Shown piece after piece: positions 19,916-43,952 of a stretch of DNA of 64,000 nucleotides. The DNA is from Schmidtea polychroa. Lineage: Eukaryota. A model generated the notes under the pieces. It was not told the origin of the DNA and did no database searches. It worked only from the letters and a program-made list of their open reading frames with translations. Numbering within the stretch: the stretch's first letter is position 1; each line of letters starts with the position of its first letter. Where the stretch lies: NCBI GenBank assembly GCA_044892525.1, contig CM097885.1, positions 29,202,001 through 29,266,000 of the forward strand, read 5' to 3'. The position numbers and the translations under genes were made by a program.

Positions 19916-22900
19916 TGTTGGGGTTACACCTCGGCTGACCACTCTACCATGTTGACGGGTCTAAGGGTTGATTGTCCATCTCGAATAAAAGGTGCCACCG
20001 ATTTGTCAACCTGGAGTGAAACCCCACATAACTTTCTTCCAACATAGTGCCCGTGAATCACTTCACGTTGGTACTGCACTATGCAGGCGAGACGCCAGCA
20101 AGCAGGTGAGCTTCTGCCTTAAAACTACTCCTTGCTGAGGCCTCGACTTCCCATTCACGACTGCCGATAGAAGGGCTTACGTCCATTTCCTTACACAACC
20201 GCTTATCGGGATTCGCTGAATGCAAATTGGGAATTTCTCACTAGATCTTGCGGGTTCTCTACTCGACCCACTTAATTAAAGTCTAATTATTCATGAACGA
20301 AGACGTGTAAGACAACAAGATTTATTAATTTCAATGTTATGACACAAGGATTCAGCTGTACACTTTACTAACGTTTGTCGAAAGAAGAGAAAACATCATA
20401 ATCAACATAGATCGGATCCTTGTTCCTCATCCTGACCGCCACTGGGATTTTATTGTTTCTCCCATTCAGTGTCGGCGAATAATTCGTCGAGGTTGAAAAA
20501 CTCGGAAGCGTTCTCTTCCCACCTTACGCCAGCGGCTGATATGATTCGTGCCGAGGGTCCCGTTGTTAGGTCGATGGACACGTGAGAGTTGCCACCGCTG
20601 GTTGAGTCCTCTATTGCTGGGATGTTTGGCTTTGTAGTAGCGCGCTCGCGCTGTCTCTTCTTGCGCTCTGCACGAGAGAGTTGTTTTCGCTTGGGTTTGC
20701 TTGAAGATGCCACTTGCAGAAGGGTGACTGATACGGATGGACTAGCAGTGGGGGGCTTACTGGTACCCGTGATGACAACATCTGGTCGCTTGGGGGACAA
20801 TTCGGTTTCGACGCAGTCTCGGCACGGTCTCTTGAATGGTGGAGATGGATTCGAGGAAAGGTTGTGATGAGGCGGAAAGATGTCATCGGCCTCTCGGATG
20901 GGAATTTGCACTATTTTCCGGGTTGTAGCCGCCTGCACGTAAACCTTATGCAGTGCCTCGGATTGTTCTCTGATTAGACTTCTTTGGGCACGGCTCTCAG
21001 ATATTAGCGCGTCCCGGCAATGCTCACTACGATCGAGCTTCTTTTGGATCTCTTTCATCCGAGCGGGACTAAACCATGTCCCTTCCAGCTCGTCTATCTT
21101 CCTCTTGTAACGTCCAATCTGAGTTTGTAGGTCCTTTATCACCGTATTTTTATCCGCGCACGAGAAGCACGGCCGTAATGCTGATTTAGTGGTTGGTAGC
21201 ATGCTTGCTATAAATAATACTAATGAAATGTAGAACATACGATTTTAGAATAAATTAGATACGACCTACGGCCATTCGTGGATGCTTGACCGACGAAAAA
21301 AAAAAAAGAAAACTTATTCTACAATCCGGTTTTACCACGGATCTTATTTGTTGAAACAATTTATTTGACCAAATGCCATCGGTTTGACGCATGCTATTAA
21401 CTTTGACTCTCTATTGATCTAACTGTATACATGAGGGGCGTAATAATTAATAGGGGGTAAATATAATATTGGTGAAACACTATAATAATGCTTTAGTAGA
21501 GGGACATTATAGTATGCGACTACACCTTGCTATAAATTATCTATTTAAATTTATTGCAAACAAATTACTATCGCTATTCTCAACATATTTTTTGATTCGA
21601 AATTTGTTATTGGAAGTGCACTTTTAATTCGGTAGTGAATGTGATTATCTATATTGTCTACCATTTGTCTGAGAATATGTGATGAGTTTACATCAGCCAT
21701 TACTTGAACCCCCTAATGGGATATCTCATCGGTCATAACACATGTCCAAATTTACGGATACTACTGTCGACTAGTTGATTACATTATCGACCTATTGTGA
21801 ATGTCACGTGTCGCGACTATTATGTATGCTAGTCTGATATTTTGTGCTCTCACCACATGGATTCGCGTATGGCTACTATCTTATCTCACTCACTTGGTGT
21901 ATGCCATTTTCACGGTGATTTTATCGATCCTGCTGTCGTATGATTTTCTCTGCACAGTGATTTATTTGAGTTATGATTTATGCTACCGCCAGTTCTCATC
22001 GCGGAATTTTACCCTTATCAACTTGTGTGAATGATCACCATCGTTTGGAAATTTATTGGATCTTTTCAGTGATCGTCGAGGGAATAATTCTACCAAATAT
22101 TGGAGCATATTACTACTCTCGTCATTCTACTCGGATTTTCCTATTCAGATGTAATGCCGTCTCGATGAAACCTGCCCTTAGCCATTCGAAATTTTCCCTC
22201 AGGTTCAATAATTTGGATATATACAGTGATGACCTGGCTCTTATTGTAGAAATAAATGTTATTAATTAAATTTGGTAATATTTTACCTGTTTATAATTTT
22301 TGAAATAACTAAGTCTATAAAAACTTTCTGATTATAATACTAGAGAGGTTTTCGTAGAATCTCGCATTTTATAGTTTCGAGTTAGTTAAAGTTTTTAGAA
22401 TACTTTCGTAACTTGACATACAATCTGGACAGGTTAGATGACATTGGGTCTATGATAACGGAATTTCATACGAAATTAGTTCTACTGAGTCCGGCAAATA
22501 GACGTTGTCGCAATTAATTTGATAAAACCATGTTTCCAGATGAAGTGTACTATGAGATGTTGTTATTTTTGACGAAGTTCACTAAATCGTGGTCTGGATC
22601 TCTTTTTTCAATAGGGGTAAGATTTACGAAAACGACTTGACGAAAGAAAAAGGAATGCGACGCCCTCAGTCACTGTGCAAATCCTTGAAAATCCCTTCAT
22701 TCGTACGACTATCTTTGTGAAATCATTGTCTACCGGTTATTTTTTATCCATACCCCATTGTGATAATTTAGTCGCATCTTCAGCGATAGGACCCGTGAAG
22801 AAGCCTTCACATTTCGGCCCAATCTAGCTGCGTGATTGAAATACTCCATGTCCACCGGCTGAGCTCCCGAAGGCACCTCATACCATGACATGGAGTATCT

Positions 22901-23784
22901 CAACTCCACGTTACTCGTTAAATGGAAATTCATAAAATCTTTAATTCAAATAAAATACGGACATCTGGATAAAAATATTTTATTGATTCTGAAATACTTA
23001 AATAATACAAATTCCATCAATACGTTAAAGTTATTAAAATGGAGAATCAAATGAAGAGAGCTAACTAAAATATTTAATCGTTAATATTTAACATTACTAT
23101 TAGCTTTGCAAATACTTAAATAAATCTATAAACAAATGAAATACCCCTTACTATTGTTTAGGCTGAGTCAAAATTCAATGTTGTTCGTTCCAAATAGTTT
23201 GAATGGTGGTCCGTTGGATGTCGATTATTGTGATGAATGGTATTTCGGTCTCTGAACTGGTTTTGAATAGTCGTGGAGTTTTCTGAATGACGGTTGCTTG
23301 GCTAGTAGTGTCGATCCTATGAAATGCTCGGGGTTAACAGTAAAAACAGTAAACATTTTTCTTACCTATGAAATGCTCGGGGTTAACAGTAAATTTAATG
23401 TTTTTGGTAGTTGTATATATATCAAATTCTTATTTGTGCGGACCAATCAGAGTTGAGTACCGCTTATTTCTATTAATTTAATATAATTTTCTTGTTTTTA
23501 GGTTGTTTTTTCCTTATTTTCTTTATTTTTAATATGTTTTTCTATTTATTTCCTTAATTTCCTTATTATTTCTTGAATTCCTCTTTATTTATTTGTCAAC
23601 TTGTTCTATTTTAATCTTTTCTTAATTTTATTTTTTGTTTTAATTCTTATGTCTTAATTATTATTTTCCTTATATCTTATTCTATTTTATTTCTGATTTT
23701 ATTTATTTTATTATTATTTTTCTTAATGTTCTACTTCCCTACTTTCTTATTTCTCAACGATTAAATTCTCGACTCAGCCCAACA
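19916..23784 (-). repeat. 3' LTR (3,869 bp)
   Basis: Direct repeat of 46096-49964. Same length, and all ORF-track translations match between the two copies. Confidence 0.97.
20450..21238 (-). CDS. LTR-encoded protein, 3' LTR copy (coiled coil, Pro/Ser linker, basic NLS-like KPKRKQLSRAERKKRQRER, acidic tail); likely start at 21202
   Basis: 262-codon ORF, GC-richer than its surroundings and identical to the 5' LTR copy. A TAG acceptor at 21208-21209 precedes the MLPTTK ATG. Confidence 0.75.
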   Translation of the reverse strand: MFYISLVLFIASMLPTTKSALRPCFSCADKNTVIKDLQTQIGRYKRKIDELEGTWFSPARMKEIQKKLDRSEHCRDALISESRAQRSLIREQSEALHKVYVQAATTRKIVQIPIREADDIFPPHHNLSSNPSPPFKRPCRDCVETELSPKRPDVVITGTSKPPTASPSVSVTLLQVASSSKPKRKQLSRAERKKRQRERATTKPNIPAIEDSTSGGNSHVSIDLTTGPSARIISAAGVRWEENASEFFNLDELFADTEWEKQ

Positions 23785-24013
23785 AATCACTCGGGGACCC
23801 ATCAAAATTGCGTCCCGCAATTGCATAATTAACTTAATTCATTCATTCAAAAAAAAAAAATATAACACGAACACGGAAAATTATACAACAATGATAAAAA
23901 TTTTATTGTAAGATCAAGGTCAAAGCAAGATCAAGCAAGTATCACTTAAGGTGATAGTTTGTACATACAATAAAAGTTTCCACATATAATAACACAAATG
24001 TTTGAGTTAGAGT

Positions 24014-24682
24014 TTATGAACTGTTAACCATTGATGCTTCTGCTGGCGGCTGTTGGTTGGTTTGGGTATTGATGTTGAGATAGGTCTGACTATTAGATTT
24101 CGGCTGGATTGGTTGATTACTCGGGGTTCGAGGTCGGAATGGGGTTGGGTTAAGATTTGTCAGGGGCACTTCTTGAGGATTTTGGTTCGAGGTTACTCTT
24201 ATTGATGTCGAGATTCTACATCTATTTCGAATTTCGTAAATTTTCATGAATATTGGTAGACATAGGAGGAGGGTCTCTGCGATCACCACATATATGAGAT
24301 AATGGGTGTCATTGATCTCGGGAGGTGTTTTTGGCTTTTCTACAAGATTTTCAAAATCCTCTTGTTGCATTTGTTGTTCCAACTGGTCGATCTGTTGGCT
24401 TTGTTCGAAGATTTGTTTGTTTATCATTTTACAATTGGGGTTCTTTTTACACATTGTTTGGATGTTGTTGATGTGGGATCGGGTTGATTGAATGGTTTGG
24501 ATGATATGGGTTTTCACGGTCATAGGGTATGTGCATTTGCCGGATTCTTGTTTAGGTTCTTGATTTTGATTGCGGTAATCTCGTACGATTTTCGGTTGGG
24601 CGTTTAATTGTTTGTTCTCCATCGGAATCATCAATACCATCATTGTTATCATCATCTCGCCTCGCATGATACTATTATACAT
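24014..24682 (-). CDS. Accessory type I membrane-like protein of unknown function
   Basis: N-terminal hydrophobic segment (MMITMMVLMIP), Cys-containing and coiled-coil ectodomain, TM YLIYVVIAETLLLCLPIFM, and a Pro/Gln/Asn-rich tail. Confidence 0.75.
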   Translation of the reverse strand: MYNSIMRGEMMITMMVLMIPMENKQLNAQPKIVRDYRNQNQEPKQESGKCTYPMTVKTHIIQTIQSTRSHINNIQTMCKKNPNCKMINKQIFEQSQQIDQLEQQMQQEDFENLVEKPKTPPEINDTHYLIYVVIAETLLLCLPIFMKIYEIRNRCRISTSIRVTSNQNPQEVPLTNLNPTPFRPRTPSNQPIQPKSNSQTYLNINTQTNQQPPAEASMVNSS

Positions 24683-24722
24683 TCATTATGTTTATTTACA
24701 ATTGGTTTTAATGACCCTTAAT

Positions 24723-25475
24723 TTAATGGTTCTGATTTGGATTATTTTCACCGATTCTCATCAAGGTGGACTCTGCTTTAATTACCCTGTGTCTTAACTC
24801 GGGCAGCATTTCCAATTGTCGGTCTTTTTCACGGGCTTCTCTCTTTAGATGTCTAATTTCTTTTTCCAAGCGTCTAATTTCTTCCCTTTTCTTTTCAAGG
24901 TTTCTTTTTAGCTCGATTTGTAGGAGATCTTGTTCGTTTTCTTGCAGGTAATTTTGTTGTTGATGTTTTCTTTCTATTTCTCTATATTTGCGGACCCACT
25001 TCCTCATTTCTTTACTTTCCCGTTGGTTTTCTTCTAGTTGTCGTTTTAATTTATTTATAGCTGTTTGGCGCTCCTTCGCCTCAGTTTTCCAGTAGTCTTG
25101 GATTACCTCCTTTGCTTTGAAGCTTGCCCTCTCTTTCCATAGCTCTTCCGCTATCTTTTCCCAGTTTTTCCCTCGCTTCCTTTGTTCGTGTAGCCATTCA
25201 TTTTCCTCTTCCGTTTCTCTTTTTATTTCCCCCAACGCTTCGCACTCTTTCTTTAACACCTTTATCATTTTCCGGTCCTCCAGGTATTTGTTTATTAATC
25301 TCCCGTTTTCGTATTTCTCTTCCCGTAACTCGGCCTTTAGCGTTTGTGTTTCTGTTGTTTCTGCCTCAATCTCTCCCTCTTCTACGTCGCTCATAATTTC
25401 TATCATTTCCTCGATTTTCATATCTATAATATGTACAGTTAATGGTGCGCTATAGTGCGACTTATACGTATACAT
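24723..25475 (-). CDS. Accessory coiled-coil protein (likely start 25421, MKIEE...)
   Basis: Long E/K/R-rich heptad ORF with the A-rich sense-strand bias of the element. TAG acceptor 2 nt before the ATG at 25421. Confidence 0.75.
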   Translation of the reverse strand: MYTYKSHYSAPLTVHIIDMKIEEMIEIMSDVEEGEIEAETTETQTLKAELREEKYENGRLINKYLEDRKMIKVLKKECEALGEIKRETEEENEWLHEQRKRGKNWEKIAEELWKERASFKAKEVIQDYWKTEAKERQTAINKLKRQLEENQRESKEMRKWVRKYREIERKHQQQNYLQENEQDLLQIELKRNLEKKREEIRRLEKEIRHLKREAREKDRQLEMLPELRHRVIKAESTLMRIGENNPNQNH

Positions 25476-25589
25476 TGATATAAAATTTAATAGTTTGGGT
25501 TACAGTCCCTTGAATACTTTTACAATACTTTAATTTTTTTGTTTGGGATATACGTCCCGGTTTTTAGTTTTTCATCTTTTCATCCACCC

Positions 25590-26645
25590 TCATACGAAGG
25601 TTTCCTCCTGGCCTACATAACCTTCATCACTATCGACCGCGGAATGTAACTGTATCGCAATAGGGTCGTATGGTAGGTAATATTGGGGAATTTGAGCTCT
25701 CAATTCACTAACTTCGTCTCTTAGAGCTCGAGTGATATTCAATTCCTCGTCGAGCAGATAGGTGAGATACCTTGTCTCTTCATCTTGCGCCTCTATCTGT
25801 TTGTCTAGGGCCTTGATTTTCTCGTCGCCCTTCCATTTTTCAATTTCTATTTCTAAGTTTTTAATATTTTCGGTGTACATTTTCCTTTCGTTTTCTAATT
25901 TTCTGTTTTTTCCTGCTAGGACCATGTTTCTTTGTTCCAGCGATCCTTGTAATCCATTAAGGTCTCTTTTCATCTCTTCTACCTGATTTACTAATTCCAC
26001 AACCCGTCCCGCTTGTTGGGTTATCATCTCTTCCATTGCGGCGTTCTCGTGCTCTCTTATGTCGCACTTCATTGCCAAATGTCGCTCAAACTCCATAGCC
26101 TTTGTTTGCCAGGTTTGGCTTCGGGCGGCGACCTTTCTCAACCTTTTCAATTCTTCCTTTATTATTAAATTCTCCTCCCATTTACCTTGTTCGCTTTCAT
26201 ATCCGAGTCTCATGGGCAATTCTTTCATCTCTTTTTTCATTTCTCTGTTTTGTCTTTTCCATTTCCTCGCTTCTGCCACTAAGTGCATCATTTTCCTGTC
26301 TTCTATTTGTTTTTCCGCTTCGCGCTTGGTGTTCTCATCGGTAAGTCTCTTTCTCGCTTCCTGCACTAGCTGCTTTAAGTAGTGGCTGTGTGCTTCTTGG
26401 CGGGTATTTTCTAGTGACGCCCATTTTGATGCTCTTTTGCATGCTTCTGCTTCCGCTCTTAAGTTGTGTATTAACCATTGGTATTGACTATTCTCATCTT
26501 CTCTAGTTTCTTCGATGTGATTTCGGGTGAGATTAGTTAGTTGGAACATTACTTTGTTCCATTTTTTGTTATGTTCTCGGGGAATTTGTGTCTTGTTGAC
26601 ATTGGTTGGGGCTATCGCAGTTTCGGTTATTTTCTCTTTTGTCAT
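25590..26645 (-). CDS. Accessory coiled-coil protein (351 aa)
   Basis: Long open frame, predominantly heptad and charged, with the same codon bias as the element. Confidence 0.8.
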   Translation of the reverse strand: MTKEKITETAIAPTNVNKTQIPREHNKKWNKVMFQLTNLTRNHIEETREDENSQYQWLIHNLRAEAEACKRASKWASLENTRQEAHSHYLKQLVQEARKRLTDENTKREAEKQIEDRKMMHLVAEARKWKRQNREMKKEMKELPMRLGYESEQGKWEENLIIKEELKRLRKVAARSQTWQTKAMEFERHLAMKCDIREHENAAMEEMITQQAGRVVELVNQVEEMKRDLNGLQGSLEQRNMVLAGKNRKLENERKMYTENIKNLEIEIEKWKGDEKIKALDKQIEAQDEETRYLTYLLDEELNITRALRDEVSELRAQIPQYYLPYDPIAIQLHSAVDSDEGYVGQEETFV

Positions 26646-26838
26646 CTCTAAATCATAGACATCGATTAATCTTTTTATTATGAAAAAGGAATTTATTCAT
26701 TATTTACTGTTTCTTGGGAAATTTTCGCATCATTTTTGGGTTTTCGTATTTATGGTTTTCATACTATTATTATATAATATTTTATTGGTTATATACACCG
26801 ATATATACAGATTATTATATACAACATTATTCGATTGG

Positions 26839-28227
26839 TTATTCCGTTCTACCCTTCTCCTCTTTCCTCACGGTCATCTTGATATATATGGTATCATTTC
26901 TCGCCATATCTTCCACTCTTTGTTGTGAGATGAACGTGGGTGCTCCTGTTGCTGATCCTTCTTCGTTGAGGGGCCTCTGGTAAGCTATTTGATTCCCCGT
27001 TGTTTTGAAGCTTTGCTCATGTATACTTTGGTTGTTCATCAGAGTAATATCGATTTTTGCCTGGAACGGCCATTCTAATATTTCGTCGTATTCTCCTTTA
27101 CATAACAGAAAGAAAATCGAAAAGTGCGTGTTTAATCCGGTTCCGTCCCCGTTGGGATATATCTTCATTTTCATTTTGTACCCATTTTTCCAAGAGTGGA
27201 ATGTAGGACTTGTTATTCTTGTCTCTTCTCCGGTTTTTGCTTTTCGTATTCTTTCTTTTACTCCCGTTATTTTCCATATGTAGGGTGCTGTTGGGGTTAT
27301 CTCATTTAGATTTATTTCCCGTATTTTCTGATGTAGCTCCTTGGCCTGATTATTACTGATTTCTGTTCGGTTTATTTGCATCTTTATGTTTGCTCGGGCT
27401 TCTTCGAACGCTTCCCTTTCTTCTAGTAGTTCTTTGACTAACACTTTCAACGATGTTATCTCTATCTCCATTTGTTTTACTTTCTCTTCGCTTTCTTGTA
27501 GCGCAGTCGACCACATTTCTGCGTGAGTTGAAGCATTTTCTACTAAATGATGTGGTAACTCACCTCGGTGTAGTAGTTTCTGACAACCCCATCTACCTAG
27601 TACACATGTCATTCTTTTCTTTGCGCATTCCCTTAGATGCTGTGCCACCTTCATTATTTCCCCTTGGTTACATCCGTTTGGGCATTCCCCACTGAACTCT
27701 GCACATACTCTCTCCTCTTGGACATTGTGATGTTTGAGGGTGAGATTTATCCACGTATCTATTTCTCCACAGTGTTCACATCTTTCCAATCTCTCTTCAC
27801 ACTGCCTTTGATGCTCTTTTTCTTCGCTTGCTCGAATGGTTTTATGGCACCTTTCACACTGGCCAATTCTGTACATACATTCTCCCATATGTTGTACTAC
27901 CTTCCATATTACTCCTTTCCATTCGCATGGGGCATTTTTGCATCCCAGGTTGGTGTTTAACATGTCTTTCACTGCGGCTTTATCCTCGTTAGTGTCTTCT
28001 AAACTCGATATTAGTGTCTCTTTACACACCGGGCACCTCTGTGGTCTATTCTTTATTGCTTCACTGATACATTCTTTACATACTCTGCATCCACATTGCG
28101 TTTGGTGAGGTTCCTTTAACAACTTTTCACATATTCCGCACATAACATGTTTGTGTATTCTGATCGTTGTAGATTTTCGGACTTGCTCGACAATCTCTCT
28201 GAACTCTTCTCTTTGTCGTTTATCCAT
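26839..28227 (-). CDS. Intronless TRAF (TNF receptor-associated factor) homologue: RING, TRAF zinc fingers, coiled coil, MATH domain
   Basis: RING CGICEKLLKEPHQTQCGCRVCKECI...CPVC, followed by repeated CxxC..H..C fingers. The MATH domain contains YIWKI, GYKMKMKIYPNGDG and GEYDEILEWPF. Confidence 0.95.
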   Translation of the reverse strand: MDKRQREEFREIVEQVRKSTTIRIHKHVMCGICEKLLKEPHQTQCGCRVCKECISEAIKNRPQRCPVCKETLISSLEDTNEDKAAVKDMLNTNLGCKNAPCEWKGVIWKVVQHMGECMYRIGQCERCHKTIRASEEKEHQRQCEERLERCEHCGEIDTWINLTLKHHNVQEERVCAEFSGECPNGCNQGEIMKVAQHLRECAKKRMTCVLGRWGCQKLLHRGELPHHLVENASTHAEMWSTALQESEEKVKQMEIEITSLKVLVKELLEEREAFEEARANIKMQINRTEISNNQAKELHQKIREINLNEITPTAPYIWKITGVKERIRKAKTGEETRITSPTFHSWKNGYKMKMKIYPNGDGTGLNTHFSIFFLLCKGEYDEILEWPFQAKIDITLMNNQSIHEQSFKTTGNQIAYQRPLNEEGSATGAPTFISQQRVEDMARNDTIYIKMTVRKEEKGRTE

Positions 28228-28312
28228 TCTATAATTATATGTACAAATAGTTCTTATCGATACAGGTTCGATATTTTATTTACAATTATTTACATTTTAA
28301 GCTAGGTTTGGT

Positions 28313-28672
28313 TTAGGGTTCGGAAGAGTCGGCTTCGTGCCCACTCTCCTCTCTATTCATTAGCCATTCCGACCAGTCTTCTATTTCTGTCTGTTCTGCT
28401 TCCTCCCTCATTCGGTCTATTTCAATTTCCTGTCGACGGCTATATTGGGTTATCCTCTCTATCTCTCTTTGCATTTGTTCGATTTTTAACCTCTGGTCTT
28501 CAATTATCTTCAAATAACTAAATCCTCTGTTCATACTCTCGATCAGGTTTCTGTGCATCGTCAGTCCTTGTTCTTGCAAATTGGACACTAATTGTGCTAA
28601 TACGGCACATTGTTGCTTCCATAATTCTTCAGTTACTGTATTGTGGTTCATTTCGTTATTTCCTTGATCCAT
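28313..28672 (-). CDS. Small accessory coiled-coil protein (about 119 aa from MDQGNN)
   Basis: Open frame immediately downstream of the polyprotein, with a TAG 2 nt before the ATG at 28672. The track start at 28696 is a TTG. Confidence 0.65.
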   Translation of the reverse strand: MDQGNNEMNHNTVTEELWKQQCAVLAQLVSNLQEQGLTMHRNLIESMNRGFSYLKIIEDQRLKIEQMQREIERITQYSRRQEIEIDRMREEAEQTEIEDWSEWLMNREESGHEADSSEP

Positions 28673-28832
28673 TCCTAATTTATATACACTTTTCAACTCT
28701 TATGTAAATTTAATTTTATTTTATGCTTCCCGTTATTGTATAATATTGATACCGCGCTTATATAGAGATATAGTACTGTTATATACATAAGATATACTTA
28801 CTTTTTACAATTATATACAGTCATATTCCTTT

Positions 28833-29837
28833 CTATATGCGTGAGTTTGGAGGGCGCTGAACGTTCCAGGCCTCCACCCACTGTCCTTGTTTGATATCAC
28901 TTGGTCGTTTCACTCGATGTTGGAAGTTTCTGATTCGGGTCATTTCTAGTTCTCCGCGATGTCGTTTATCTTTAATTATTTTTATTGTTCCCCCCGTTAT
29001 GATTAGGAATGCCCCTGTTATTATTATCCCACTGATCCACATCATCTGCTTCACGCTTATACTCTCTGGTTTTTCCTTGTTTGTTAATGTTGATATCGCT
29101 TCTGTACTTTTCTCGTTTCCTCTTTTGCCATTTCCTTTCATCATTTCCCGTATTCTTGCTATTTCCTCGTTCATACCCTCCTTTGCCATCTTTTGTATTT
29201 TTTCCATCTCTTCCTCCGAAACATAGTTGTCCTGAGCTTCCTCACCAGTTTTCTTGTGCTTTCCTCCTTCGTTCTTTTCGTCGTGGTTTTTTCTTTTCTT
29301 TCCTCTTTTCCCCGGGTATCGTCGGCATTCTCTTTTTGATTCATTCCTCCAGATACAAACCGTGTATTCTTTCGGCGGCTGCTGCTGCGTCACATATTGA
29401 TGGCATCTCTCACCTGGTCCTAATCTTGAAATACAGACTTTGTGCTCTTTTCTAGGTTGGATCTGCGTTATTACTACTTCACCACCTTTTCCTAGGTGTA
29501 CCTCTTTTCCTTTGACGTTCGTTATTCTCTTCCCGTCTCGATTTCGGTATGCTTCTTGTATTCTTACTTCTGTTATTGGTTCTGTGTCCTCATTTATCAG
29601 TACTAGTTTCTGATACGCTCTAGACATGCATCTTCCTAGTATGCACCTTTCCTTTAAGTCCCATTCTTCCTTTAAATCCCACTGCTGCTCTTGTGCTTGC
29701 TTTCTCTTTTCTTGTTTTAGTTCATCCTCTTTGCTATCTTGATTCTCCGCTTCTTTGGTTTCTTTTATCGTTCTCGTCCCTCCCTGAGCTGTTACTAACT
29801 CTATCATGGTAAGCATAATTATCATTAATATCATATT
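28833..29837 (-). other. Polyprotein domain: C-terminal type I membrane protein (internal signal peptide 29787-29837, TM about 28978-29046)
   Basis: MILMIIMLTMIELVTA|QGG is signal-peptide-like and MMWISGIIITGAFLIITGGTIKII is TM-like. The intervening region has two similar Cys motifs. Confidence 0.65.
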
Positions 29838-32800
29838 TGTCTCTATTTCTTTGTTAGTGAAAGGTAGGCATACCCTCTGTTTTCCATTATTCGATTTTTC
29901 CTCCTCTTTGGTCTTGGTTCTCGGGCTGTTTCCTTCTCTTTTCGTATCCGAATCCTTGTTTTCTGGTTTACCCTCCTCCGGTTCTCTTTTCTCTTTATCC
30001 TCCTTTCGGTCTTTTCCGTTATTGTCATCGTGTTTATCTCCCTCGCTGTCATTTAAAATGTCGTCCTCGACATTTATATCGTTCAATAATCTGCGATATG
30101 CTGTTAGCACTCTGTTTCTTGCTAATTTTGCTTCGAATTCAAACTCTTTTCTACCCGTTGCAGCATGTCTCTTTCTATTCCATTCTTTAACTAACTCTCT
30201 CAATTGCATACGACGATGTTTCCCAATTCGTTGTTGCTCGTTCTGATTTTGCGTGAATTTTAGGTCTTCTCTATTTAATACTATTAAAATAATTTTAGGC
30301 GTCCCCCCCTTAGTTAGGGTATTCTTTACCATCGCATTTTCTCCGTTTTCGTAGAATTCGTTTACATTTATCGCATATTTATTATTTGGTGGTACTCTCC
30401 AGGTTAATAATAATTTCATTGCTTCTAGATTTTTCCGTACCGTATTCCATTGAAACTGAGATGTGTTTTTGCACATATTTTCGACTTCTTCTTTTGTCGC
30501 ATTTTTGCAAATAAATCTGATCATTTCTAAGTTTGGCTGTATGGTTGCCCAGTCCAAGGTGGAATTTCCTTCATTGGACTTTTCGTCTAGTTTCGATCCT
30601 GATTGATGTAGGATGTGGAGTGTTTTTGGGTGTATTTTCGTTATAGCTGCATACATCATGGCGGTTTCACCTTGTTCATTTTTCGTGTTGGTTTCCTCGC
30701 CCATCTCTCCAAGGATTCTCACGATCGTTATTGCTCTATTTTCTTTCGCTGCTAGTATTGCTTGTTGTAGGGGTGTTCTGGAATCCTTCGTTACCATCGT
30801 AAATGCTCGAGGCAAGAAGGTTTTGATTTTCCCGATATCTAAACCCGTGGTTTGATCTCTTGCGTATGTGTGTACGGCTTTTATTATTTTGGACAATATT
30901 ATTTCGTCTGGCAGCTCTAGCATTTCCTCAAAGAACACTTCTTTTGCCTTGCGTATTATTGCCTCTTGATCTATACTCATTGATTTGGTTTCGATGACGT
31001 TGTTTGTGACCGTTTGGTTCGTTGTTGACTTTGATTCCCTGGATTTCTCATACCTTATTTTCGTTTTCTTTCCGTTTGGATTATTGATTCGTTCCTCTGC
31101 TGTAAGTATTTGGATAATATCCAGGTAATTCTCGCGGATGTTATTCATTGTGTCCATCATATATAACACACTTACCGTTTCCCAATATTTATTCCGTACT
31201 TGGTTAGTAAATTGGAATAGTGATTTTTCGAATGTGTCGATTCGCTTTTTTGTTAACTGTTCGTCTTTGTGATTTGTGAATTTTATCCCTCGTTCTAGTA
31301 ATTGATTCGGGATTTCGAATAAATGATGTCCTTTCATAGCTTCTCTCATCAGCGTGTTCTCTCCTCTCGTGAACGCTTCGTTTACGTTGATCATATAATC
31401 GTTTCGAATTGGATCTCTCCATGTAATTAATATTCCGGTAATTGTCGTCAGTTTTTCTTTGATCGCTGTTAACAATCCATCATACATGTTTCCGACTTCC
31501 CGATTGTCCTCATATGATAGTAGTTCCATCAATGACGTGAACGCCTCGGTACTTCTCCCTTCGATAGCATGGTGTAGAGCGTTTTTCCGCTCGTGGTCTT
31601 GTGTGGTTATTTTCGATCCGGTATCGAGTAATGCGGTTATAATGTCTTTTGTTTTGCCTCTGTTTGCGGCTATCATTAATGGTGTGTAACCTTGGTTGTT
31701 TGTTTGTTCTGTTGATCGCTTGCAGTCGTGAAATGCTTCTATTGTTTCTAGTATTTGCTCGTTGTTACCTACTTTCATGAGTTTGTGTAATGGTGTGTCT
31801 TCGTAATGATCTGTTATTGTAAATAATATTGGCCATTGGCTTTTGACTACTCGCAATAATGGGTGTGTCCTTTCTCTATTTGCATAGTTCTCGATCATCG
31901 TCAATAATCCTCCTAATATTTCGAAATCTAATCGATCTTTTGCCCATCCAGGTATTTTAATTTTTACCTCTTTTACAATCTTTTCCGCTTCTGATGGTTG
32001 GATACCTAATCGTCCAGTGATCGGTTCTGCGAGTTGTTGCATCATGTTCATTCGGTAGGTTTGCGAACGTGTGGTTAATGTACGGCCTTCTGGTTGACTA
32101 GTGGCTGTTTTTGGAATTGATTTGCATCGTGCCACGTTTACGTATATTGGTCTGGTAAAGGGGTTATTTACCAATTTCACTCTTACATTAGTTTCGCCTA
32201 CGAATAAGATCTCATATGGTCCTTTTCCGTTGCGTTGTAACTTTTTTGTGGTTCCTGGAATTAATTCCGGGGTTTCTATCATTACCCAATCACCTGTTTG
32301 GAACGTATGTTGCTTCACGTTTTTCTTTCGATCGTGTAAATCTTTATAACTTTCCTGGTAGAACTTGATATTTAATCCCGCAGTTTCCCAAATTTCTTGC
32401 ATTCTTTCCTTGAATTTCGTAACATAATCATCGATCTCCATATACTGCGATATCGGTGGTTGGTATTCCAGGTCCATTGGCATATTACATTCTCTTCCGT
32501 ACATTAATTTGAATGGGCTCATTTTCGTTGATGCGTGAATCGACATTCTGTACGCCATAAGACATAGGTTTATATATTCGTCCCAATCTCGTTGGTGACG
32601 GTCAACGTAGTTTGATAACATTTGTATAAGTGTTCCATTAAATCTTTCCGTCATCCCATTGGTTTGAGGGTGGTATGGAGATGTTCTTAGTTTTGCTATT
32701 TTGAAGTAATTTGTTACTTCGCTCATTATCTCACTCATAAAATTTGTTCCCTGATCGGTTAAGATTTGTTTTGGTGTTCCATATCGGCAACATATCTCTT

Positions 32801-35800
32801 CTACCAAAATTTTTGCGATTGTTTTAGCTTTTTGGTCTGGCATCGCGAATGCTTCTGGGAATTTCGTAAGAAAGTCTGTGATCACCAGAATGTAAACGTT
32901 TCCTTTATCTGACTCTGGTAGTGGACCAACTACGTCCATGGATATCATTGTCATTGGTTCTATTGGTACTGGCATTGGCGTTAAAGGTGCTTTCCATTTC
33001 GATCCCGTATTCTTCCTGGTTGCACAAGTTAGACAATTTTTTACCCATTCGGTTACATCTTCCGTTAACGTAGGCCAAAAATATTTCTGTTTCATTCTTG
33101 CTAACGTCTTTTTCGATGACATATGTCCTCCCAATCTCCCATCGTGATATTGCGTTAGTAACTCTTTTCGTCGGTTTTCCGGTATACACATTAATCGTTT
33201 TTCCCCATCCATTATCAGCAACCAATCTTTCTCTATAATATATCGGTGTCGGTGTTTATCCATATGTTCTTTTAATTTTTGGTCTTTCGCATATACATCT
33301 GTCTTTCCGGTTTTTACATAATCGATAATTTGTTTTAATTCCGCGTCCTCTTGTTGGTCCTTTCGTAATTGACAGAAATCCAAATCTTCCGCTACTATTA
33401 AGCATATGCGTTGCATTTCTGAATCCACCAAATCTGGGAAAATAAATCTTGACATACAATCGGCGTTGGCATTTGCTCTTCCCGCTTTGAATTTTATAAA
33501 TGGGGAGTATTCTTGCAATTGCATGGCCCATCGCATCAGTCTACTGGACGCTTCTTTATGTTGCCCTAACCACACTAATGGTTGATGATCCGTGGTTATG
33601 CATATCTCATGTCCCCATAGTAAATATCGGAAGTGTTTGATAGCTTGTATTATAGCCAATGCTTCTCGTTCTGTTACCGAATAGTTCTTTTCGTGCTTTT
33701 TGAATGTTCGACTGTAATACCCGATTACTCTCTCTTTTCCCTCATCGTCTAATTGTCCCAGAATCGCGCCTGCCGCGTACCCGCTTGCATCCGTTGCCAA
33801 TAGAAATGGCTTCTTAAAATCTGGGTGTACGAGGATAGGTGCTTCGATTAGTTTATCTCTCAGCGTTTCGAACGCCTGTTGTTGTTCTTTTTCCCAAATG
33901 AACGAAATATCCTTCTTTACTAATTCCTGGATTGGTTTTGCAATTCCTGCATAATTTTTGATAAATTTGCGATAGTATCCGCATAATCCTAGAAATTCCT
34001 GAACTTGGGTGACAGTTTTCGGTGCTGGACATGTTTTTATTTTCTCAATGTTTCTTGGATCTGGCTCCTTTCCTTTAGCTGACACTATGTGTCCTAAAAA
34101 CGTGACTTTTTCCTTTGCCCAATCGCATTTTGATGGTTTGAGTTTGAGTTTCCACTGTCTTAATCTAATAAATACGTTTCGGATATCTTCTAGATGTTGT
34201 TCAAATGTCGCTGAATAGATTAGTAAATCATCAATATATACCATACATTGTTTGATTCCATGGGTGACAAAGTTCATACACCGTTGAAATGATGCTGGTG
34301 CGTTAGTCAGTCCAAATGGCATTTTCCTGAATTGATATAGATCTCGTCCCAACGTGAAAGCTGTTTTCTCTTTGTCCTCATCTTTGACTTTAATCTGCCA
34401 GTATCCACTTTTTAGATCTAAAGAAGTAAAATATGCTGCCCCTTGCAACATCAATAACATCTCATTGATGTCCGGCAATGGATAGGTATCTCTCTTGGTC
34501 ACTGCGTTTAACTTCCGATAATCGATACAGAATCGTTGGGTGCCATCTTTCTTTTTTACCATGACCACTGGGAATTGCCAAGGTGAGCAACTTGGTTCGA
34601 TTACTTTTGCGTCTAGCATCTTTTGTACTTCTGTTTCGGCTATTTCTTTCTGCATTTCTGCTAGCTTGTATGGTCTCAATGCAATTGGGGTTTCGTCTAT
34701 GAGTGGTATTGCATGTAAGGTAACATCACATGTACCCAAGTCTAAATCTGAGATGGCGAATATATCTTTATATTCTACCAACAATCGGTGCAATTTTTTC
34801 TTTTCGTCATTCGTCAACAACATACTATCTATTGTCCATAATTCATCATCTTTGATCATCTCGTTGGTCACTTTCGGTAATTCTATGTCCATCATTGGGG
34901 TCAATCTTCCCAATTTTTCGTTCTCATAAATGATTTTGTCTTCCTCTTCGAAATTCGTGATGTTGAGCGGTATCACTCCTTCTTGGTTTATTGTGATTAT
35001 TTCTCTCGCGAGTGGTAATTCTCGTCGCTTTTCGAATGACTTGCTTGGTTCAAAGATAACTTCTCCTTCCATACCCGTATCCACTTTTATCTGACAAATC
35101 ATCTGCGATTTTGCTGGTACTATTATTTTTTCTGGACATCTGATGACTGCATTCATTTTGCATATTCTACCGGTTTTGTCTTTTAAACACATGGTTGTTA
35201 AGTCAATTACGACTTCCTTTAACAATTCTGGCATCAAATCCGTTCCGATTATGCATGGTACGCTAAGTTTTGGTATTACTGCCAAATACGTTTCAATTTC
35301 GTTGTCCTGGTATCTCAATGTAGTCCACCATCTTCCGACCACGTCCACTGTTTCTTTACTACATGCTATAATGTGAATTGTTGTTGATTCGATATCCTTC
35401 CAGTGTTTACTGGGGATTTGATTAATCGCTATCGCTGATACATTAGCTCCGGTGTCTATCATAGCATTGGTTTCTTTACCATTGATTTGAATCATAACTG
35501 TTACTGCTGGACCTCCAGGTAAACTCATCGCTGCTATTGTTCTTACGTCATCTGCTTGATCTACACTTTTGGTACGTCGTGTTGGCATATAATGCATACC
35601 GGGTTGACTCGGTAATTGCGGATACATATTTTGTGTCATGGTCAAAGCTGTTTGTGGTCCCACGATATCCGGTGGTATATAGCTTCCATTGGCGATCCAG
35701 GTGTTTGTCTTTTCCTTTTCCCAATATGGTGCCGTTTCCATTGGTTTTTCGTTTGGGTTTCTGTTTGGATAAAGACATTTATCGTTCCCGTTATCATCGT

Positions 35801-38800
35801 CGTCACTATCGCTGTTAGATGATTGGCTTCTAAATCGGTCCAAGAATTTTGGCTTATTCTTTTTCAATTGTCGTCTTGTTGCTTCATCGTACATTACTTT
35901 CCGGAATCGTCTGCCTACTTCCTCGTCGGTTCCTTTAATCTTTGTTAATATTTTAATCAATCGCTTTATCCGATGAATGTCTTTTGAGTGGCCATGTAAT
36001 ACCATGGTCTTAGCTAAAAATGGTAAGAAGCCTACTATCATTTTCCAATTAACTTTCTTTTCCCGCTTGTATATATCGAAACAAGCTAACATTTGTGTTA
36101 GTATTACTCTGACTATCTGAATTATGAGTATGATCCCTAATATCCCGGCCATCATTTGTCCAAAAACTAAGAATCTTCCCCACATTGCTTTCATCATGTT
36201 TGACGTAGCTTGTTGAAAATGGTCTGGCGATAATAGCAGCTCGTAATTCGGGCCTGATTGATAGTTTGTGCCCCCAGTTATTGTTACCATATTAGACAAA
36301 ATGGATTCTCGTCTGGCTGGAAAGAGTACGTTAAGTCGTGCTGTTTCTAGATCTTCCGGGGAATACATACCACCGTTTGACACGTCTATAGGTTTGAAAT
36401 CCAGCTCTGTGGCGAGTTCTATTAATCCAAATTTCTTGGGCTCCTCGGATATGGTTTTTCCCGGTAACATCATCCATTTCCCATCGGGCCTTTCATATAA
36501 AGGTCCGTATGCATTAGAACAGTTAAAGAGATTTGGGTAGAAACCCACTGGATTCATAATTCTAGTGACTGGTTGGACGAATCGATTTTGTCCTTTATAA
36601 CGGATTTCTAATTCATTTGCACATCTCTTTTCGGGTAGTATGGATTTTTCTGGCATTCGTGCATACGTCTTGGTACACTGGTATGTGTACATCACTTCTC
36701 CTACCATTCTACCAAAGTGTCCATCTGGTAATGGGAGTGATGGCATCGTGTTATCTGGGTGCGTTATCGCAATAGCTAGCTTTGTTTTCAATATTTCTTT
36801 ATTCAATGAACAATCGTTTTGTATCAGATCGTAATATACTTTTTGCAAGGTCGTTTGTCCACGATGAAATAGAAAATCCATTTTATTATTTGCATATAAG
36901 TATAGTTTTACGTCCTCCGTTGCTATCTTTCCCACTGCTCTATCGATTATTTGTCTCGACATATAGATGCCTGCGTAATTGGTTTTATATACTATACTGT
37001 CACATTTGGTGGTTTCTTTCTCTTTGATAAACCTCATACCTAGATCTGGATCGTCTGTGATTAATGCTGTTGGTGTCTTCTGCGTTGAAAGTCTCTTTTC
37101 TCTGGGAGATGGTGGCATTGGTTTTCCATTTCGCATCCTCACTCTGTCGTTTCCATCCTCGTCGTTCTCGTTCTCATATATTTCTCCTTTTACTTCATTG
37201 AACAAAGCACTTTTTAACAGTTGGAGTCGGCATTTTTGGGTATTAGCTTCATAGATTATAGTTGATACTCCTGTCCTACATACGTTTTCTGTAGCTCTAC
37301 ACGCTGGGTTGGTCTTCATTTGGTAATTATTTGCGTCAAATTGCGCTTCGTATTCTTTTAATTCGACCGTGTAAGACTCGATCACTACAACTCCCGATAT
37401 TACCTCGCCTCGGATCGTATACGTACCTCCGTTACATGACCCATCTGATGATTTTACTTTTCCGGATACGTAAACACTTTCGGTTTTAATCATTCCAGTT
37501 TGTCCGTGAATTGTCACTCCGTTATGCATTTTTAGCGCTCCGGTTCTAAATAGCTCTTTACAATCCTCTCGTTGTATTGATACGATTTCTTTATCCAGAC
37601 CGGGTAGTATAAGAGTCGAATACGAATATTGTCCACAGTAATATGCGAGTACCTTTTTTGATACTACGCATTCCCTTGCTTGCGTTCTGATGAAATCTGA
37701 TTCTTGATATACATGGTAAGTAACTTTTGTTCTCACGATGTCCAATTTGTTGGGTGAGGCTTGTCTGCATTCTTCTATGTCTCTCAATGAGTATTTATCT
37801 CTCATTATCATGTTATCACAATCGTAGATGGTGAAACCTGTTGCTCCACTTGTGCACAACATCCATATCATCATAGTCATCATTAACGAATTTATTGATG
37901 CTTTTCTGCTTGCGGGATCTTTCATCGGTAGTTCCCATTCTAGTTCATTTAACAATTTTTTCAATCTAACTTGCATCGACCTTTCTTGCTCATTTTTCCG
38001 TGGCGCTTGTATCAGTCTTTTCCATCCTCCTGCACGAATAATGTGTGGTTCAATAGTATTCTCTATGATTGAAACGGTCATTTCTACATGATTTGCAAAC
38101 TGTTTATTTGGTATTTTCCTCGCAGCTAGTCCCATCAAATTATACATCAAATAAGTGATTACCACTAGGTGATGCTCGTCATCATTTGCATTTGTCGTGA
38201 GCTGCTCAATCACTCTCTTTGTTTCGTCCCAATCCGTTTTGGTGGTTTTCGTTTTCTCTTTGATTAACTTTGGGATTATCCCCGAAATGGTGTGCCATAA
38301 TTGTCTAGCTTCCGTACTGGCTACTTTCCGTTGCCACAAACGTCTAAGTTGTGGGTTTGTTATTATTAACATATCTTTTAACAATTCTCGTATCCATTTT
38401 TCTCCTCTTTCGATCGTTGGTTGGGCTTCCTTTAGATCCCATACTATTTTATCCAATTTTTCTAATCGAACTTGCCCTTGTTCTTGCTTTAATTGTTCTT
38501 TGGTTTTGAACTCAGACTTTTCTCCTTGTTTCTTGGGTCTTCCTTTTGCCCGTTTTTCCATCATCGTTCCTGCTTCTCTGGTATTTTCGTAATTCGGATT
38601 TCTTTCGTTATCCGTTCTGGGTAATGAGCTATCGTTATTTCTTAGCCACTCATTCCATTCGTCTATTATTTTGTCGGTTTGACTTTCTGGTGTTACTTTC
38701 GTTGGTTCTCTTTGCTTCTGGAATTGTTCATCCGTTTCGGTTTCCGTAGTATTGTCGATGATTTCTTTGATGTTTAGTTTCGTGGGTTGTTGATAACTCG

Positions 38801-42686: not shown

Positions 42687-43952
42687 GATTGGTGTTCTAG
42701 GTTCGTCTGTTTCTTTTAAATTGTCTAACGATGTGACTAAACTTTGGGCTGATAATTCCTCGGTTGACGTTGCTAAACTATTAGTGATATCGGACAGACT
42801 TTCTCTACTTCGAGATCGACTAGGGGTATATCCGAGATTTTCTTGGTCAAATATGGGTACTTGATTGGTTCTTCTGGATCCTTGTGATATTCCTCTTTGA
42901 TGTTTAATGGATCGTCCTCTTTTGAGTTGTTGTAATTCGTCTCCTGAAAATAATACGTCTCCTGGCTTACTAGAAGATCTAAGATTGGGTTTATCCGTGA
43001 TTCCTTTCTTACGCTTCTTGGTAATTAGCGGCTATTGAATCGGACGCGTTCGGTTCTGATTGTGTTTCTAATTCTTGGCAGATGGCTGCTAATACTTCTT
43101 CCGTTCTGGAGTCTTCCGGTCGCTGTGTCTCTCGGTGCGGGTTCTGAATGGATTTATCCTTGGTTGATTGTCGATTTTCTTCGAATTCCTTTTGTGCAGG
43201 TTCTGGATTGTCTTGGTTGGCTGGATTGGCTTGATATCTAAAATGAAAAAATGATCTCGTGTTGCATTTGCTTACACGACTTCATCATTCTTTCTACAAC
43301 ATTCAAAAACAGACACCTTTTAGGTTTCTGTTTGTGCTTCCCCTATCTTTTGTGAAATCCTGTCTGCGGTTTATAATATCCCATCAGCCCGTATTTTCCG
43401 TCGATTTTAAATTATCTATATGGGGTAGTAACAATTATCTATAAAGTCGTAATAATTATCTATTCGTTATCAATTATAGTAAAAATAGGTCGTTGTCGGT
43501 CTCTGCTTATTACCCCCCTTTCATTTTCCTAATCCTTTTGCGCTGTTGTCGCTATTTTACTTTTCATATTCACTATTATTACGCTCGGTTCTACTCTGGA
43601 ACCAATAAAATGCATTTTTCCCGGTTTAACCCAAAAAAAAAAAAAAATATTCCGTAGAGTTTCTCTACTTCACTGGGATCCCTTTAATTAGTTAGTTACT
43701 TTCCTCTTTACTCATTATCATCATTTCATCTATTCTTTATTTTCTATTATCTCTTTAATTCGTTTCCTTCTTCCCTTTCCTTTTTCATTATAATCTTATT
43801 TTCTTTTCCACGAGCTCGTTTATTCCCTCTCTAAACTCTAATTTTCAAAATTACATTCAATTTGTTCTAGCTAGCTTTAATATTCCATATCACTAGTAAT
43901 TTAAATATTATCTCATTGTAGCTTAACTGCTATCTCTCGCTTTTCTAGGCCT

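Follow-up and report, generated by a model that had tools for sequence, protein, structure and literature searches.

The locus raises the question of how a giant LTR retroelement could express a string of small genes beside its polyprotein. In the 64,000-nt stretch of Schmidtea polychroa DNA analysed here (the window), we found such an element with 8 distinct ORFs, the polyprotein and seven accessory ORFs, five of which form a co-oriented cassette (Table 1). The element had TG...CA termini and a 4-bp target duplication (CCGG), and its LTRs were 100% identical across 3,869 bp. We take the 18-mer next to the 5' LTR to resemble the 3' end of tRNA-Pro. The polyprotein of 4,617 aa contained, by Pfam matches in the expected succession, retrotrans_gag, CCHC knuckles, PR-RT-RH-IN and ankyrins. 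A mononegavirus-like env (PF24664, E 5e-70, residues 1868-2207) lay in frame between gag and pol, with the protease following at residue 2397. Matches to ubiquitin (E 0.009) and Bcl-2 (E 0.032) were in the expected order, but both were weak and short of the cut-off; these two stretches had no PDB match, and no dUTPase or BIR motif was matched by Pfam in the element proteins.

Table 1. Features of the retroelement, in window positions.
Feature	Position	Strand	Basis
Whole Burro-type LTR retroelement, 30,049 bp	19916..49964	-	LTR pair, ends, domain content
5' LTR, 3,869 bp, LTR ORF inside	46096..49964	-	LTR pair comparison
Candidate LTR promoter: reversed CCAAT box 49629, TATA-like box 49601	49595..49629	-	motif match, putative function
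Candidate non-coding exon 1, ~30 nt, ending at donor AG/GTAAGA (GT at 49545)	49540..49578	-	
LTR ORF, 250 aa from ATG 47382; T-rich acceptor ending at 47388	46630..47390	-	Met position in homologues
Primer-binding-site-like 18-mer	46071..46088	-	sequence inspection
RING ORF, 161 aa, PF13920; CAG acceptor 2 nt before ATG 45753	45268..45758	-	Pfam
AATAAA and GU/U-rich downstream element after RING ORF	45070..45125	-	second of 98 by downstream T
74-bp tandem array, 9.6 copies, no ATG, GTAAG in each unit	43953..44661	-	
Polyprotein leader: T-rich acceptor candidate (exon start 43237), then 551 ATG-free nt to polyprotein ATG; overlapping coding-like frames	42687..43251	-	
Polyprotein, 4,617 aa: gag, 3 CCHC knuckles, weak ubiquitin-like and Bcl-2-like matches, fusion glycoprotein, PR, RT, RH, IN, ankyrins	28833..42686	-	
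Spacer 1, 160 nt: 3 TGTAHATA, AATAAA, TAG acceptor 2 nt before ATG	28673..28832	-	
Cassette ORF 1, 119 aa, no Pfam match	28313..28672	-	
Spacer 2, 85 nt: 3 TGTAHATA, AATAAA, TAG acceptor 1 nt before ATG	28228..28312	-	
Cassette ORF 2, 462-aa TRAF-like protein (RING, MATH)	26839..28227	-	Pfam
Spacer 3, 193 nt: 3 TGTAHATA, 3 AATAAA, TAG acceptor 2 nt before ATG	26646..26838	-	
Cassette ORF 3, 351 aa, coiled-coil-like, no clear family	25590..26645	-	
Spacer 4, 168 nt: 1 TGTAHATA, ATTAAA only, TAG acceptor 2 nt before second ATG	25422..25589	-	
Cassette ORF 4, 232 aa from second ATG, coiled-coil-like	24723..25421	-	
Spacer 5, 55 nt: 1 TGTAHATA overlapping AATAAA, TAG acceptor 4 nt before second ATG	24668..24722	-	
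Cassette ORF 5, 217 aa, hydrophobic N-terminus and one transmembrane-like segment	24014..24667	-	
AATAAA and GU/U-rich downstream element, 123 nt upstream of 3' LTR; candidate shared 3' end of cassette mRNAs	23847..23907	-	rank 1 of 98
3' LTR, identical copy; LTR ORF copy at 20450-21202	19916..23784	-	LTR pair comparison

The element is intact and young, and its domain order is that of the planarian Burro retroelements; this architecture and the AT-rich flanks point to a planarian host. Excerpts of PMC6431247 describe the Burro / GYPSM1 elements of dugesiid planarians as sharing the size (~30 kb or more, with multi-kb LTRs), the huge ORF with gag, 2-3 CCHC knuckles, env between gag and pol, PR-RT-RH-IN and ankyrins, the TRAF and RING accessory functions and a tandem repeat. 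MATH/TRAF and RING, which may lie in the polyprotein or in accessory ORFs of Burro elements, were found here at 26839-28227 and 45268-45753. However, TRAF occupies a downstream accessory ORF, as opposed to a position inside the polyprotein in Burro1 and upstream in the D. tigrina element, and the polyprotein is shorter than the 4,873 and 5,140 aa of Burro / GYPSM1 elements (PMC6431247, in excerpt). No close sequence relative was found, and no named Burro-1 to -4 or GYPSM1 record matched the element in the collections searched. Exact look-up of 10 ORF versions in the protein collection returned 0/10, and polyprotein residues 1-420 had no match among proteins of 2,602-8,281 aa. The TRAF ORF had one homologue (36%) and ORF 4 none among 732 candidates, and atlas searches with ORFs 3 and 5 returned solely unnamed or generic coiled-coil look-alikes.

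An earlier note on this DNA had placed a YAG acceptor 1-5 nt before the ATG of every ORF. All seven contexts that it listed were present, with distances of 2, 1, 2, 2 and 4 nt in the cassette, 2 nt at the RING ORF and 5 nt at the LTR ORF, but the polyprotein is an exception (7/8 ORFs), the nearest YAG to its ATG (42686) being 10 nt away and none lying within 5 nt. The note had also counted four ATGs as chosen to fit, and there are really three: 28672, 28227, 26645 and 45753 are first in-frame ATGs, and 25421, 24667 and 47382 are second ones. YAG preceded 10-16% of background ATGs (38/236 internal in-frame, 29/248 out-of-frame, 18/113 non-coding, and 59/581 and 75/611 in the flanks). A strict count of first ATGs (4/8) gave P values of 0.011-0.021 at p = 0.125-0.15 and of 0.056 at p = 0.2; with the second ATG allowed, the excess reached P = 1.4e-5 to 4.8e-5, for a 1-5 nt window that was chosen post hoc. 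The three second-ATG choices are independently supported. The stretches before them scored as non-coding (-0.08, -0.63 and -0.33 bits/codon vs 0.46-0.56 in ORF bodies), and a Met lay 39-43 residues before the core in 6/8 LTR-ORF homologues with a visible core, which fits the second Met (40) and not the first (52). The YAG-before-ATG pattern is real, and all seven accessory ORFs have, within 5 nt and at the level of sequence, the arrangement of complex retroviruses, in which the start is the first AUG after an upstream acceptor.

The pattern might nevertheless be a by-product of a -3 purine context, AT-rich spacers and a post hoc choice of ATG and window. The strict first-ATG count (P 0.01-0.06) points that way, as do the 5/7 starts whose -3 purine is supplied by the AG. 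This explanation appears very doubtful, given the support for the second ATGs and the occurrence of TGT at -14 to -18 in 5/5 spacers (0/20,000 shuffles, also post hoc); furthermore, the ORFs would still need some expression route.

As splice sites, the cassette acceptors are poor: no pyrimidine tract precedes them (Y 0.25-0.56 at -5 to -20, lowest at ORF 1), and part of their high T rank among 745 YAGs comes from a comparison set made up largely of A-rich coding sequence. The polyprotein ATG is the first AUG after the T-rich candidate acceptor 43237, and correction for TG depletion leaves little significance to the lack of ATGs in its leader (P = 0.087). An in-frame TAG at 43032-43034, which would place a spliced-leader (SL) AUG in frame, was rejected as the polyprotein acceptor, being merely the upstream stop of the frame and low in T (0.19).

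A candidate donor that could serve these acceptors was found in the 5' LTR. Apart from the reversed CCAAT box, the LTR has no full reversed NF-Y-type match, and the TATA-like box is the first of its three TATAWAW. Transcription would start near 49575, giving a U5 of ~3 kb. The donor at 49545 sits 56 nt behind the TATA box and is one of three distinct AG/GT(A/G)AG sites on the sense strand, the other two lying inside ORFs; it falls within the top 18 of 1,254 GTs and is not unique. The 419 nt before it contained 0 ATG vs 5.1 expected (2/3,000 shuffles). The same donor could alternatively pair with a TAG 49 nt downstream. In an alternative layout, also possible, R would be short and lie near 46500, with the donors at 46360-46552.

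The AATAAA hexamers that the earlier note had seen in the spacers were indeed present in 4/5 of them, but they were not above chance (6 vs 4.97 in dinucleotide shuffles, P = 0.38). All ten spacer hexamers were followed by A-rich sequence without a U-rich downstream element (downstream T 0.18-0.36 vs 0.58-0.64 at two strong sites). The strong sites, 23907 and 45125, were the best of 98 hexamers, the former ranking first by downstream T (0.64 vs a median of 0.22). Both lie outside the LTR, and their use would depart from the retroviral rule of 3' ends in the 3' LTR.

These data bear on the idea, also raised in the earlier note, of an operon resolved by host SL trans-splicing, with cleavage at the spacer AATAAA and addition of the SL to the next ORF at the AG. 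Such an operon would account for the YAG-ATG excess and for the AATAAA 25-52 nt before the AG in 4/5 spacers, and would need no introns of 21-25 kb. The co-oriented ORFs, the acceptor before the start and the spacers of 55-193 nt resemble flatworm operons, whose spacing is ~100 bp (PMC8629364 and PMC12582326, in excerpt) and was judged here with a threshold of <300 nt taken from the latter source. According to the same excerpts, however, those operons consist of host genes reliant on 3' cleavage between cistrons, and a sequence-level test found no good signal for this in the spacers, where AATAAA is neither enriched nor accompanied by U-rich downstream sequence, unlike the U-flanked cleavage sites of planarians (PMC5068929). 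Flatworm SLs end in AUG, and 0/7 distances would put this AUG in frame (chance ~0.06), yielding uORFs of 1-39 codons instead. In addition, a candidate cis donor lies upstream, and cis-splicing is said to out-compete the SL (PMC4558846); cleavage at each spacer would also destroy the genomic RNA. We therefore consider SL resolution unlikely, although one part of it persists: on average, 66% of flatworm SL sites share their acceptor between cis- and trans-splicing (excerpts of PMC12582326), and low-level SL use is therefore compatible with cis-splicing too. If the SL reading were true, the locus would be a mobile element built like a host operon.

The spacers contained another signal. TGTAHATA occurred 11 times in the sense and 0 times in the antisense orientation in 665 spacer bases (~0.5 expected) and was absent from 18 kb of ORFs; it was the top pattern, equalled by 1/1,000 shuffles after look-elsewhere correction. 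Its fifth base was T in 6, A in 3 and C in 2 cases and never G, which fits the consensus UGUAHAUA of Pumilio response elements (PMC4995099). The clusters are possible Pumilio-type control sites, and their placement in 3' UTRs would depend on the proposed end at 23907. Three TGTAHATA lie at -16 to -18 and may belong to the acceptors instead of being Pumilio sites. A CFIm (UGUA) reading of the motif was rejected because planarian poly(A) sites show no UGUA enrichment (PMC5068929).

Six of the 11 motifs double as TATA boxes, and each spacer might instead combine a compact TATA promoter with a terminator, in the manner of large DNA viruses, with the TAG incidental or part of an initiator. The spacers hold 9 strand-specific TATAWAW; spacer 1 carries TATATAAG ~92 nt before an ATG-free leader, and spacer 3 opens with CCAAT followed by TATA boxes. 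There are precedents in Oikopleura Tor3b/4b, where env is so driven according to 5' RACE, and in foamy viruses, which have one internal promoter (PMC4402516 and PMC3694450, both in excerpt). However, TATAWAW was not enriched (9 vs 6.3 in shuffles, P = 0.19), and 5/11 TGTAHATA are not TATA boxes. The established TATA spacing is ~30 nt, and boxes at -14 to -18 are too near the ATG. Transcripts from internal promoters would retain the out-of-frame ATGs just before the start of ORF 3, and the YAG excess and the RING and LTR acceptors would be left unexplained. Internal promoters are thus an improbable route. Baculovirus-type ATAAG late promoters were also rejected (4 observed vs 2.4 expected).

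Expression from one polycistronic RNA by termination-reinitiation or leaky scanning, with the TAG as the stop of a small uORF beside the start, is less probable still. It agrees with the preponderance of TAG (6/7), with the TAG of spacer 3, which closes a 4-codon uORF 2 nt before the ATG, and with the single strong poly(A) signal at the cassette end. The other spacers, however, have no uORF ending at the TAG, the RING ORF has CAG, and the stop-to-start gaps of 55-193 nt hold extra ATGs. A structured RNA or IRES was rejected as well: four spacer segments tested gave no folding signal (z from -0.84 to 1.89), and Rfam had 0 matches across 32 kb.

We favour, with a probability of about 0.55, the production of the accessory ORFs as cis-spliced subgenomic mRNAs from the LTR promoter, the five cassette mRNAs having one internal 3' end. 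The earlier note had offered spliced subgenomic RNAs, as in complex retroviruses, as an option; the candidate LTR promoter and donor, the poly(A) signal after the cassette and the non-coding composition before the ATGs lend it support. From these features and their statistics we infer the start site, every junction, the use of the poly(A) sites and the binding of Pumilio. Transcription would begin early in the 5' LTR, and a short AUG-free exon ending at donor 49545 would be joined to one of several weak acceptors (47387, 45755, 43237, 28674, 28228, 26647, 25423 and 24671), each positioned such that one ORF begins at the AUG that follows. The RING mRNA would terminate at its own signal, 45125, and the cassette mRNAs would form a nested set with a common end at 23907; ending before the 3' LTR, they would therefore not be reverse-transcribable as genomes. 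The spacers would thus sit in the 3' UTRs of upstream mRNAs, with 11 Pumilio-type elements downstream of the polyprotein and 8, 5, 2, 1 and 0 downstream of ORFs 1 to 5, and this number might permit graded post-transcriptional control. Splicing would also take out the two out-of-frame ATGs of spacer 3 that lie <=17 nt from the start of ORF 3. Against the cis-splicing model, its introns would span 21-25 kb. A hybrid seems unlikely, in which the far cassette acceptors, with UGUAHAUA replacing the pyrimidine tract, would be served partly by the host spliced leader or switched by Pumilio or the UGU-binding CELF protein Bruli; the retroelement would then draw on the operon processing and the stem-cell regulators of its host in deciding whether genomic RNA or the seven accessory mRNAs are made.

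The closest parallels to the cis-splicing model share parts of it. Adenovirus has a major late unit with one promoter, a common non-coding leader, many acceptors before ORFs and families sharing poly(A) sites. The likeness is one of layout only, adenovirus being a DNA virus with no full-length RNA to spare for reverse transcription. Foamy viruses likewise have a major donor that lies in R, upstream of their poly(A) signal, as well as separate LTR-spliced mRNAs; however, they are Retroviridae and not Gypsy-like, their mRNAs end in the 3' LTR, and their accessory genes use an internal promoter (excerpts of PMC3694450); the element here has seven accessory ORFs, and its candidate poly(A) sites lie outside the LTR. 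The Arabidopsis Ty1/Copia shGAG mRNA is made by splicing coupled to internal termination, but it is one subgenomic RNA and encodes Gag (excerpts of PMC5580714), whereas at least 7 are predicted here, for accessory proteins. The Oikopleura Tor elements are env-bearing invertebrate LTR elements that express a downstream ORF, env, by LTR splicing (Tor3a) or an internal promoter (Tor3b/4b); they have one such ORF, and the excerpts of PMC4402516 do not mention trans-splicing.

In planarians, Burro elements are numerous and active and are kept under PIWI control (PMC6431247 and PMC8532177, in excerpt), and the literature searched, partly in excerpt, gave no account of the expression of their accessory ORFs. 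The model makes exact predictions: one donor, eight acceptors and, outside the LTR, two poly(A) sites. If it is true, a Gypsy-like element has evolved a common-leader transcription unit with internal 3' ends, its accessory mRNAs being kept from reverse transcription, and the Pumilio-type elements in the spacers would add a layer of control besides piRNAs. Burro elements carry TRAF, RING and Bcl-2-like modules. In the flank, one host intron of 44 nt (52266-52309) is predicted, with a weak donor and an AAG acceptor.

The cassette of five accessory ORFs (ORFs 1 to 5, each preceded by the spacer of the same number) sits within a 30,049-bp LTR element. Its two LTRs of 3,869 bp are 100% identical, the ends are TG...CA and a CCGG target duplication is present, indicating a young insertion. 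A single 4,617-aa ORF carries, in order, gag, zinc knuckles, a Monjiviricetes-type fusion protein, protease, RT, RNase H, integrase and ankyrins, with weak matches to ubiquitin (E 0.009) and Bcl-2 (E 0.032) ahead of env. The same architecture has been described for planarian Burro elements (PMC6431247), which are already known, and suggests a planarian host. The seven accessory ORFs all share one orientation. One lies within the LTR, the RING ORF follows the primer site, and the other five come after the polyprotein, the second of these being TRAF-like. The literature found, mostly judged by listing entry, contained nothing on Burro transcript structure, on spliced-leader (SL) use by an autonomous retroelement or on Pumilio elements within a retroelement; passages of PMC8532177, PMC11410931, PMC10899757 and PMC6880638 add no transcript map.

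Features of the element and its flanks (window positions)
Feature	Position	Strand	Remark
Element	19916-49964	-	Burro type
LTRs	46096-49964, 19916-23784	-	5', 3'
CCAAT match, reversed	49629		only full match in LTR
TATA-like box	49601	-	first in LTR
Candidate donor	49545	-	AG/GTAAGA
30-nt block, duplicated	49497-49575	-	around candidate donor; copy 2 lacks GT, ends in TAG, bounds possible 49-nt intron
LTR poly(A) candidates	49258, 49164	-	downstream of donor
LTR ORF	46630-47382	-	homologues 29-42% over ~90 aa
Primer-site-like 18-mer	46071-46095	-	7 nt offset from LTR; similar to LTR's own first bases; presumably tRNA-Pro-like
RING ORF ATG	45753	-	
RING poly(A) signal	45125	-	
Donor-like CAA/GTAAGA	44931	-	may be chance
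74-bp tandem array	43953-44661	-	9.6 copies, between RING poly(A) signal and leader acceptor; longest ATG-free stretch of element (795 nt); donor-like GTAAG in every unit
GTAAGC	43275	-	would give 38-nt intron
Leader acceptor	43237	-	T-rich; candidate
Leader frames	42687-43281	-	three, overlapping, AUG-less
ORF 5	24014-24667	-	resembles small single-pass membrane protein, signal-like N-terminus; no family found
Cassette 3' end, candidate	23907	-	AATAAA
Region ahead of 3' LTR	23785-23805	-	no typical polypurine tract
GC-richer island	19700-19915, 49965-50160		at insertion point; may be another repeat or exon
Nudix hydrolase exons	52053-52642	+	TGTATAT ~20 nt upstream of the intron's AAG acceptor
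Host intron	52266-52309		44 nt
1.1-kb element	52672-53763		44-nt inverted ends, transposase-like fragments inside
hAT transposase ORF	54258-55982	-	PF05699; looks intact

The YAG-ATG pattern is real. The earlier note had placed a YAG acceptor 1-5 nt before each accessory ATG, and all 7/7 contexts stand as written, with distances of 2, 1, 2, 2 and 4 nt for ORFs 1 to 5, 2 nt for the RING ORF and 5 nt for the LTR ORF. However, the polyprotein ATG has no YAG within 5 nt, which makes 7/8 once it is counted. The background rate was 38/236, 29/248 and 18/113 for other ATG classes within the element, and 59/581 and 75/611 in the flanks. The accessory ATG is the first in frame for four ORFs and the second for three. 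With the distance window chosen post hoc, the strict count of 4/8 gave P of 0.011-0.021 (0.056 if p is set generously to 0.2), and 7/8 with a second try allowed gave P of 1.4e-5 to 4.8e-5.

Judged from sequence, the three second-ATG choices hold up on independent grounds. The extensions before them scored -0.08, -0.63 and -0.33 bits per codon, compared to 0.46-0.56 in ORF bodies, and were T-rich like the spacers. Among ten distant homologues of the LTR ORF, eight showed a conserved core by pattern, with a Met 39-43 residues before it in six of the eight; in the LTR ORF itself the second Met lies 40 residues before the core and the first 52, so that the homologue spacing fits the second. This support is modest, since the homologues are mostly chimeric-looking gene models fused to unrelated host proteins, as expected if LTR copies had inserted in genes. 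The single homologue of the TRAF ORF starts at the equivalent Met (first Cys 31 vs 30).

The likeliest cause of the pattern would be cis-splicing of a mini-exon in the LTR, combined with internal 3' ends (probability roughly 0.55); all mechanism statements here derive from one element copy. The layout is analogous to the adenovirus major-late unit. The candidate donor is one of three distinct sense-strand AG/GT(A/G)AG sites, of which the other two fall inside ORFs, and the chance of a landing ≤60 nt from the TATA-like box for three such sites in 26 kb is ~0.007 (simple arithmetic, post hoc). Furthermore, the 419 nt ahead of it hold 0 ATG vs 5.1 expected (2/3,000 shuffles), and an AUG-less first exon would explain why each ORF needs its start directly after its acceptor. 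In foamy viruses, too, the donor lies in R ahead of the poly(A) signal (PMC3694450), and splicing plus internal termination is already known from Ty1/Copia (PMC5580714). However, by U1 match the donor is among the top 18 of 1,254 GTs, a TAG 49 nt downstream, from the duplicated block, could be its partner instead, and an LTR start near 49575 implies a U5 of ~3 kb. A short R near 46500 with donors at 46360-46552 would supply all internal acceptors by cis-splicing too.

The Y fraction at -5 to -20 was 0.62-0.69 for the RING, LTR and leader acceptors and 0.25-0.56 for the cassette acceptors. In the Nudix gene, the single inferred host intron combines a weak donor with an AAG acceptor, which makes degenerate sites plausible, although a single case cannot stand for a model; a published splice table covers 8,609 planarian introns (PMC3022928). 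For ORFs 1 and 4 and the LTR ORF, a close upstream AG would yield the identical first AUG, which leaves the precise junction ambiguous.

The AATAAA hexamers in the spacers, cited earlier as support, are no more frequent than chance (6 observed; dinucleotide shuffles gave 4.97; P=0.38). U-rich elements lie on either side of planarian cleavage sites (PMC5068929), and we ranked all 98 AATAAA/ATTAAA of the element by downstream T (median 0.22). The candidate cassette end, located after ORF 5 and 123 nt short of the 3' LTR, ranked first (0.64), and the signal past the RING ORF second (0.58). The ten spacer hexamers showed downstream T of 0.18-0.36 and A of 0.33-0.53; two, in spacers 2 and 4, came close to the 90th percentile and may see weak use. 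The simplest reading would be one 3' end common to the cassette mRNAs, outside the LTR. The donor-like site past the strong RING signal is 194 nt from it; a similar distance, 195 nt, has been reported for poly(A) suppression in HIV-1 (PMC3694450).

Processing of an operon by host SL trans-splicing would also place acceptors before ORFs; the spacer lengths match flatworm operons (PMC8629364, PMC12582326), and flatworm acceptors often serve both cis and trans splicing (PMC12582326). We consider it unlikely, however: the internal signals for cleavage are weak, a cis donor reportedly wins over the SL (PMC4558846), and flatworm SLs end in AUG (PMC12582326), whereas 0/7 distances are in frame (chance ~0.06) and an SL-supplied AUG would start uORFs of 8, 2, 1, 1, 39, 1 and 22 codons.

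The spacers hold a highly significant motif of apparent Pumilio type, TGTAHATA, identical to the element UGUAHAUA (PMC4995099). Eleven copies occur in 665 spacer bases, in 5/5 spacers; base composition predicts 0.19, and 5,000 dinucleotide shuffles gave 0.56, with 6 at most. Among 8-mers with one free position it ranks first, and any pattern was as frequent in 1/1,000 shuffles. The fifth base is T in 6, A in 3, C in 2 and G in 0. None occurred on the antisense strand of the spacers, and none in 18,016 coding bases; the flanks held 12 and 7 per strand in 33,971 bases. With a shared end at the candidate cassette signal, 11, 8, 5, 2, 1 and 0 elements would follow the stops of the polyprotein and ORFs 1 to 5. 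Alternatively, a share of the copies may act as acceptor elements, since TGT begins 14-18 nt before the ATG in 5/5 spacers (0/20,000 shuffles, post hoc); planarian Bruli is a UGU binder that regulates stem-cell splicing (PMC4978528). CFIm is an improbable explanation of the motif in planarians (PMC5068929).

Six copies double as TATA boxes, although TATAWAW itself shows no enrichment (9 observed, 6.3 in shuffles, P=0.19). Boxes 14-18 nt ahead of the ATG lie nearer to it than the usual TATA spacing of ~30 nt would allow. Internal promoters have precedent in Tor3b/4b (PMC4402516) and are compatible with spacer 1, but spacer 3, which has two out-of-frame ATGs ≤17 nt from the start, speaks against them; they are improbable. 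Termination-reinitiation on one RNA, which spacer 3 fits and no other spacer does, is less probable still: four spacer segments lacked folding excess. Rfam gave 0 matches across 32 kb.

Downstream of the leader acceptor, the first AUG is that of the polyprotein, 551 nt away. TG dinucleotides are scarce in this leader (4 in 551 nt), and the ATG absence has P=0.087. The three leader frames, of 83-115 codons, show coding-like codon use; one starts at the leader acceptor.
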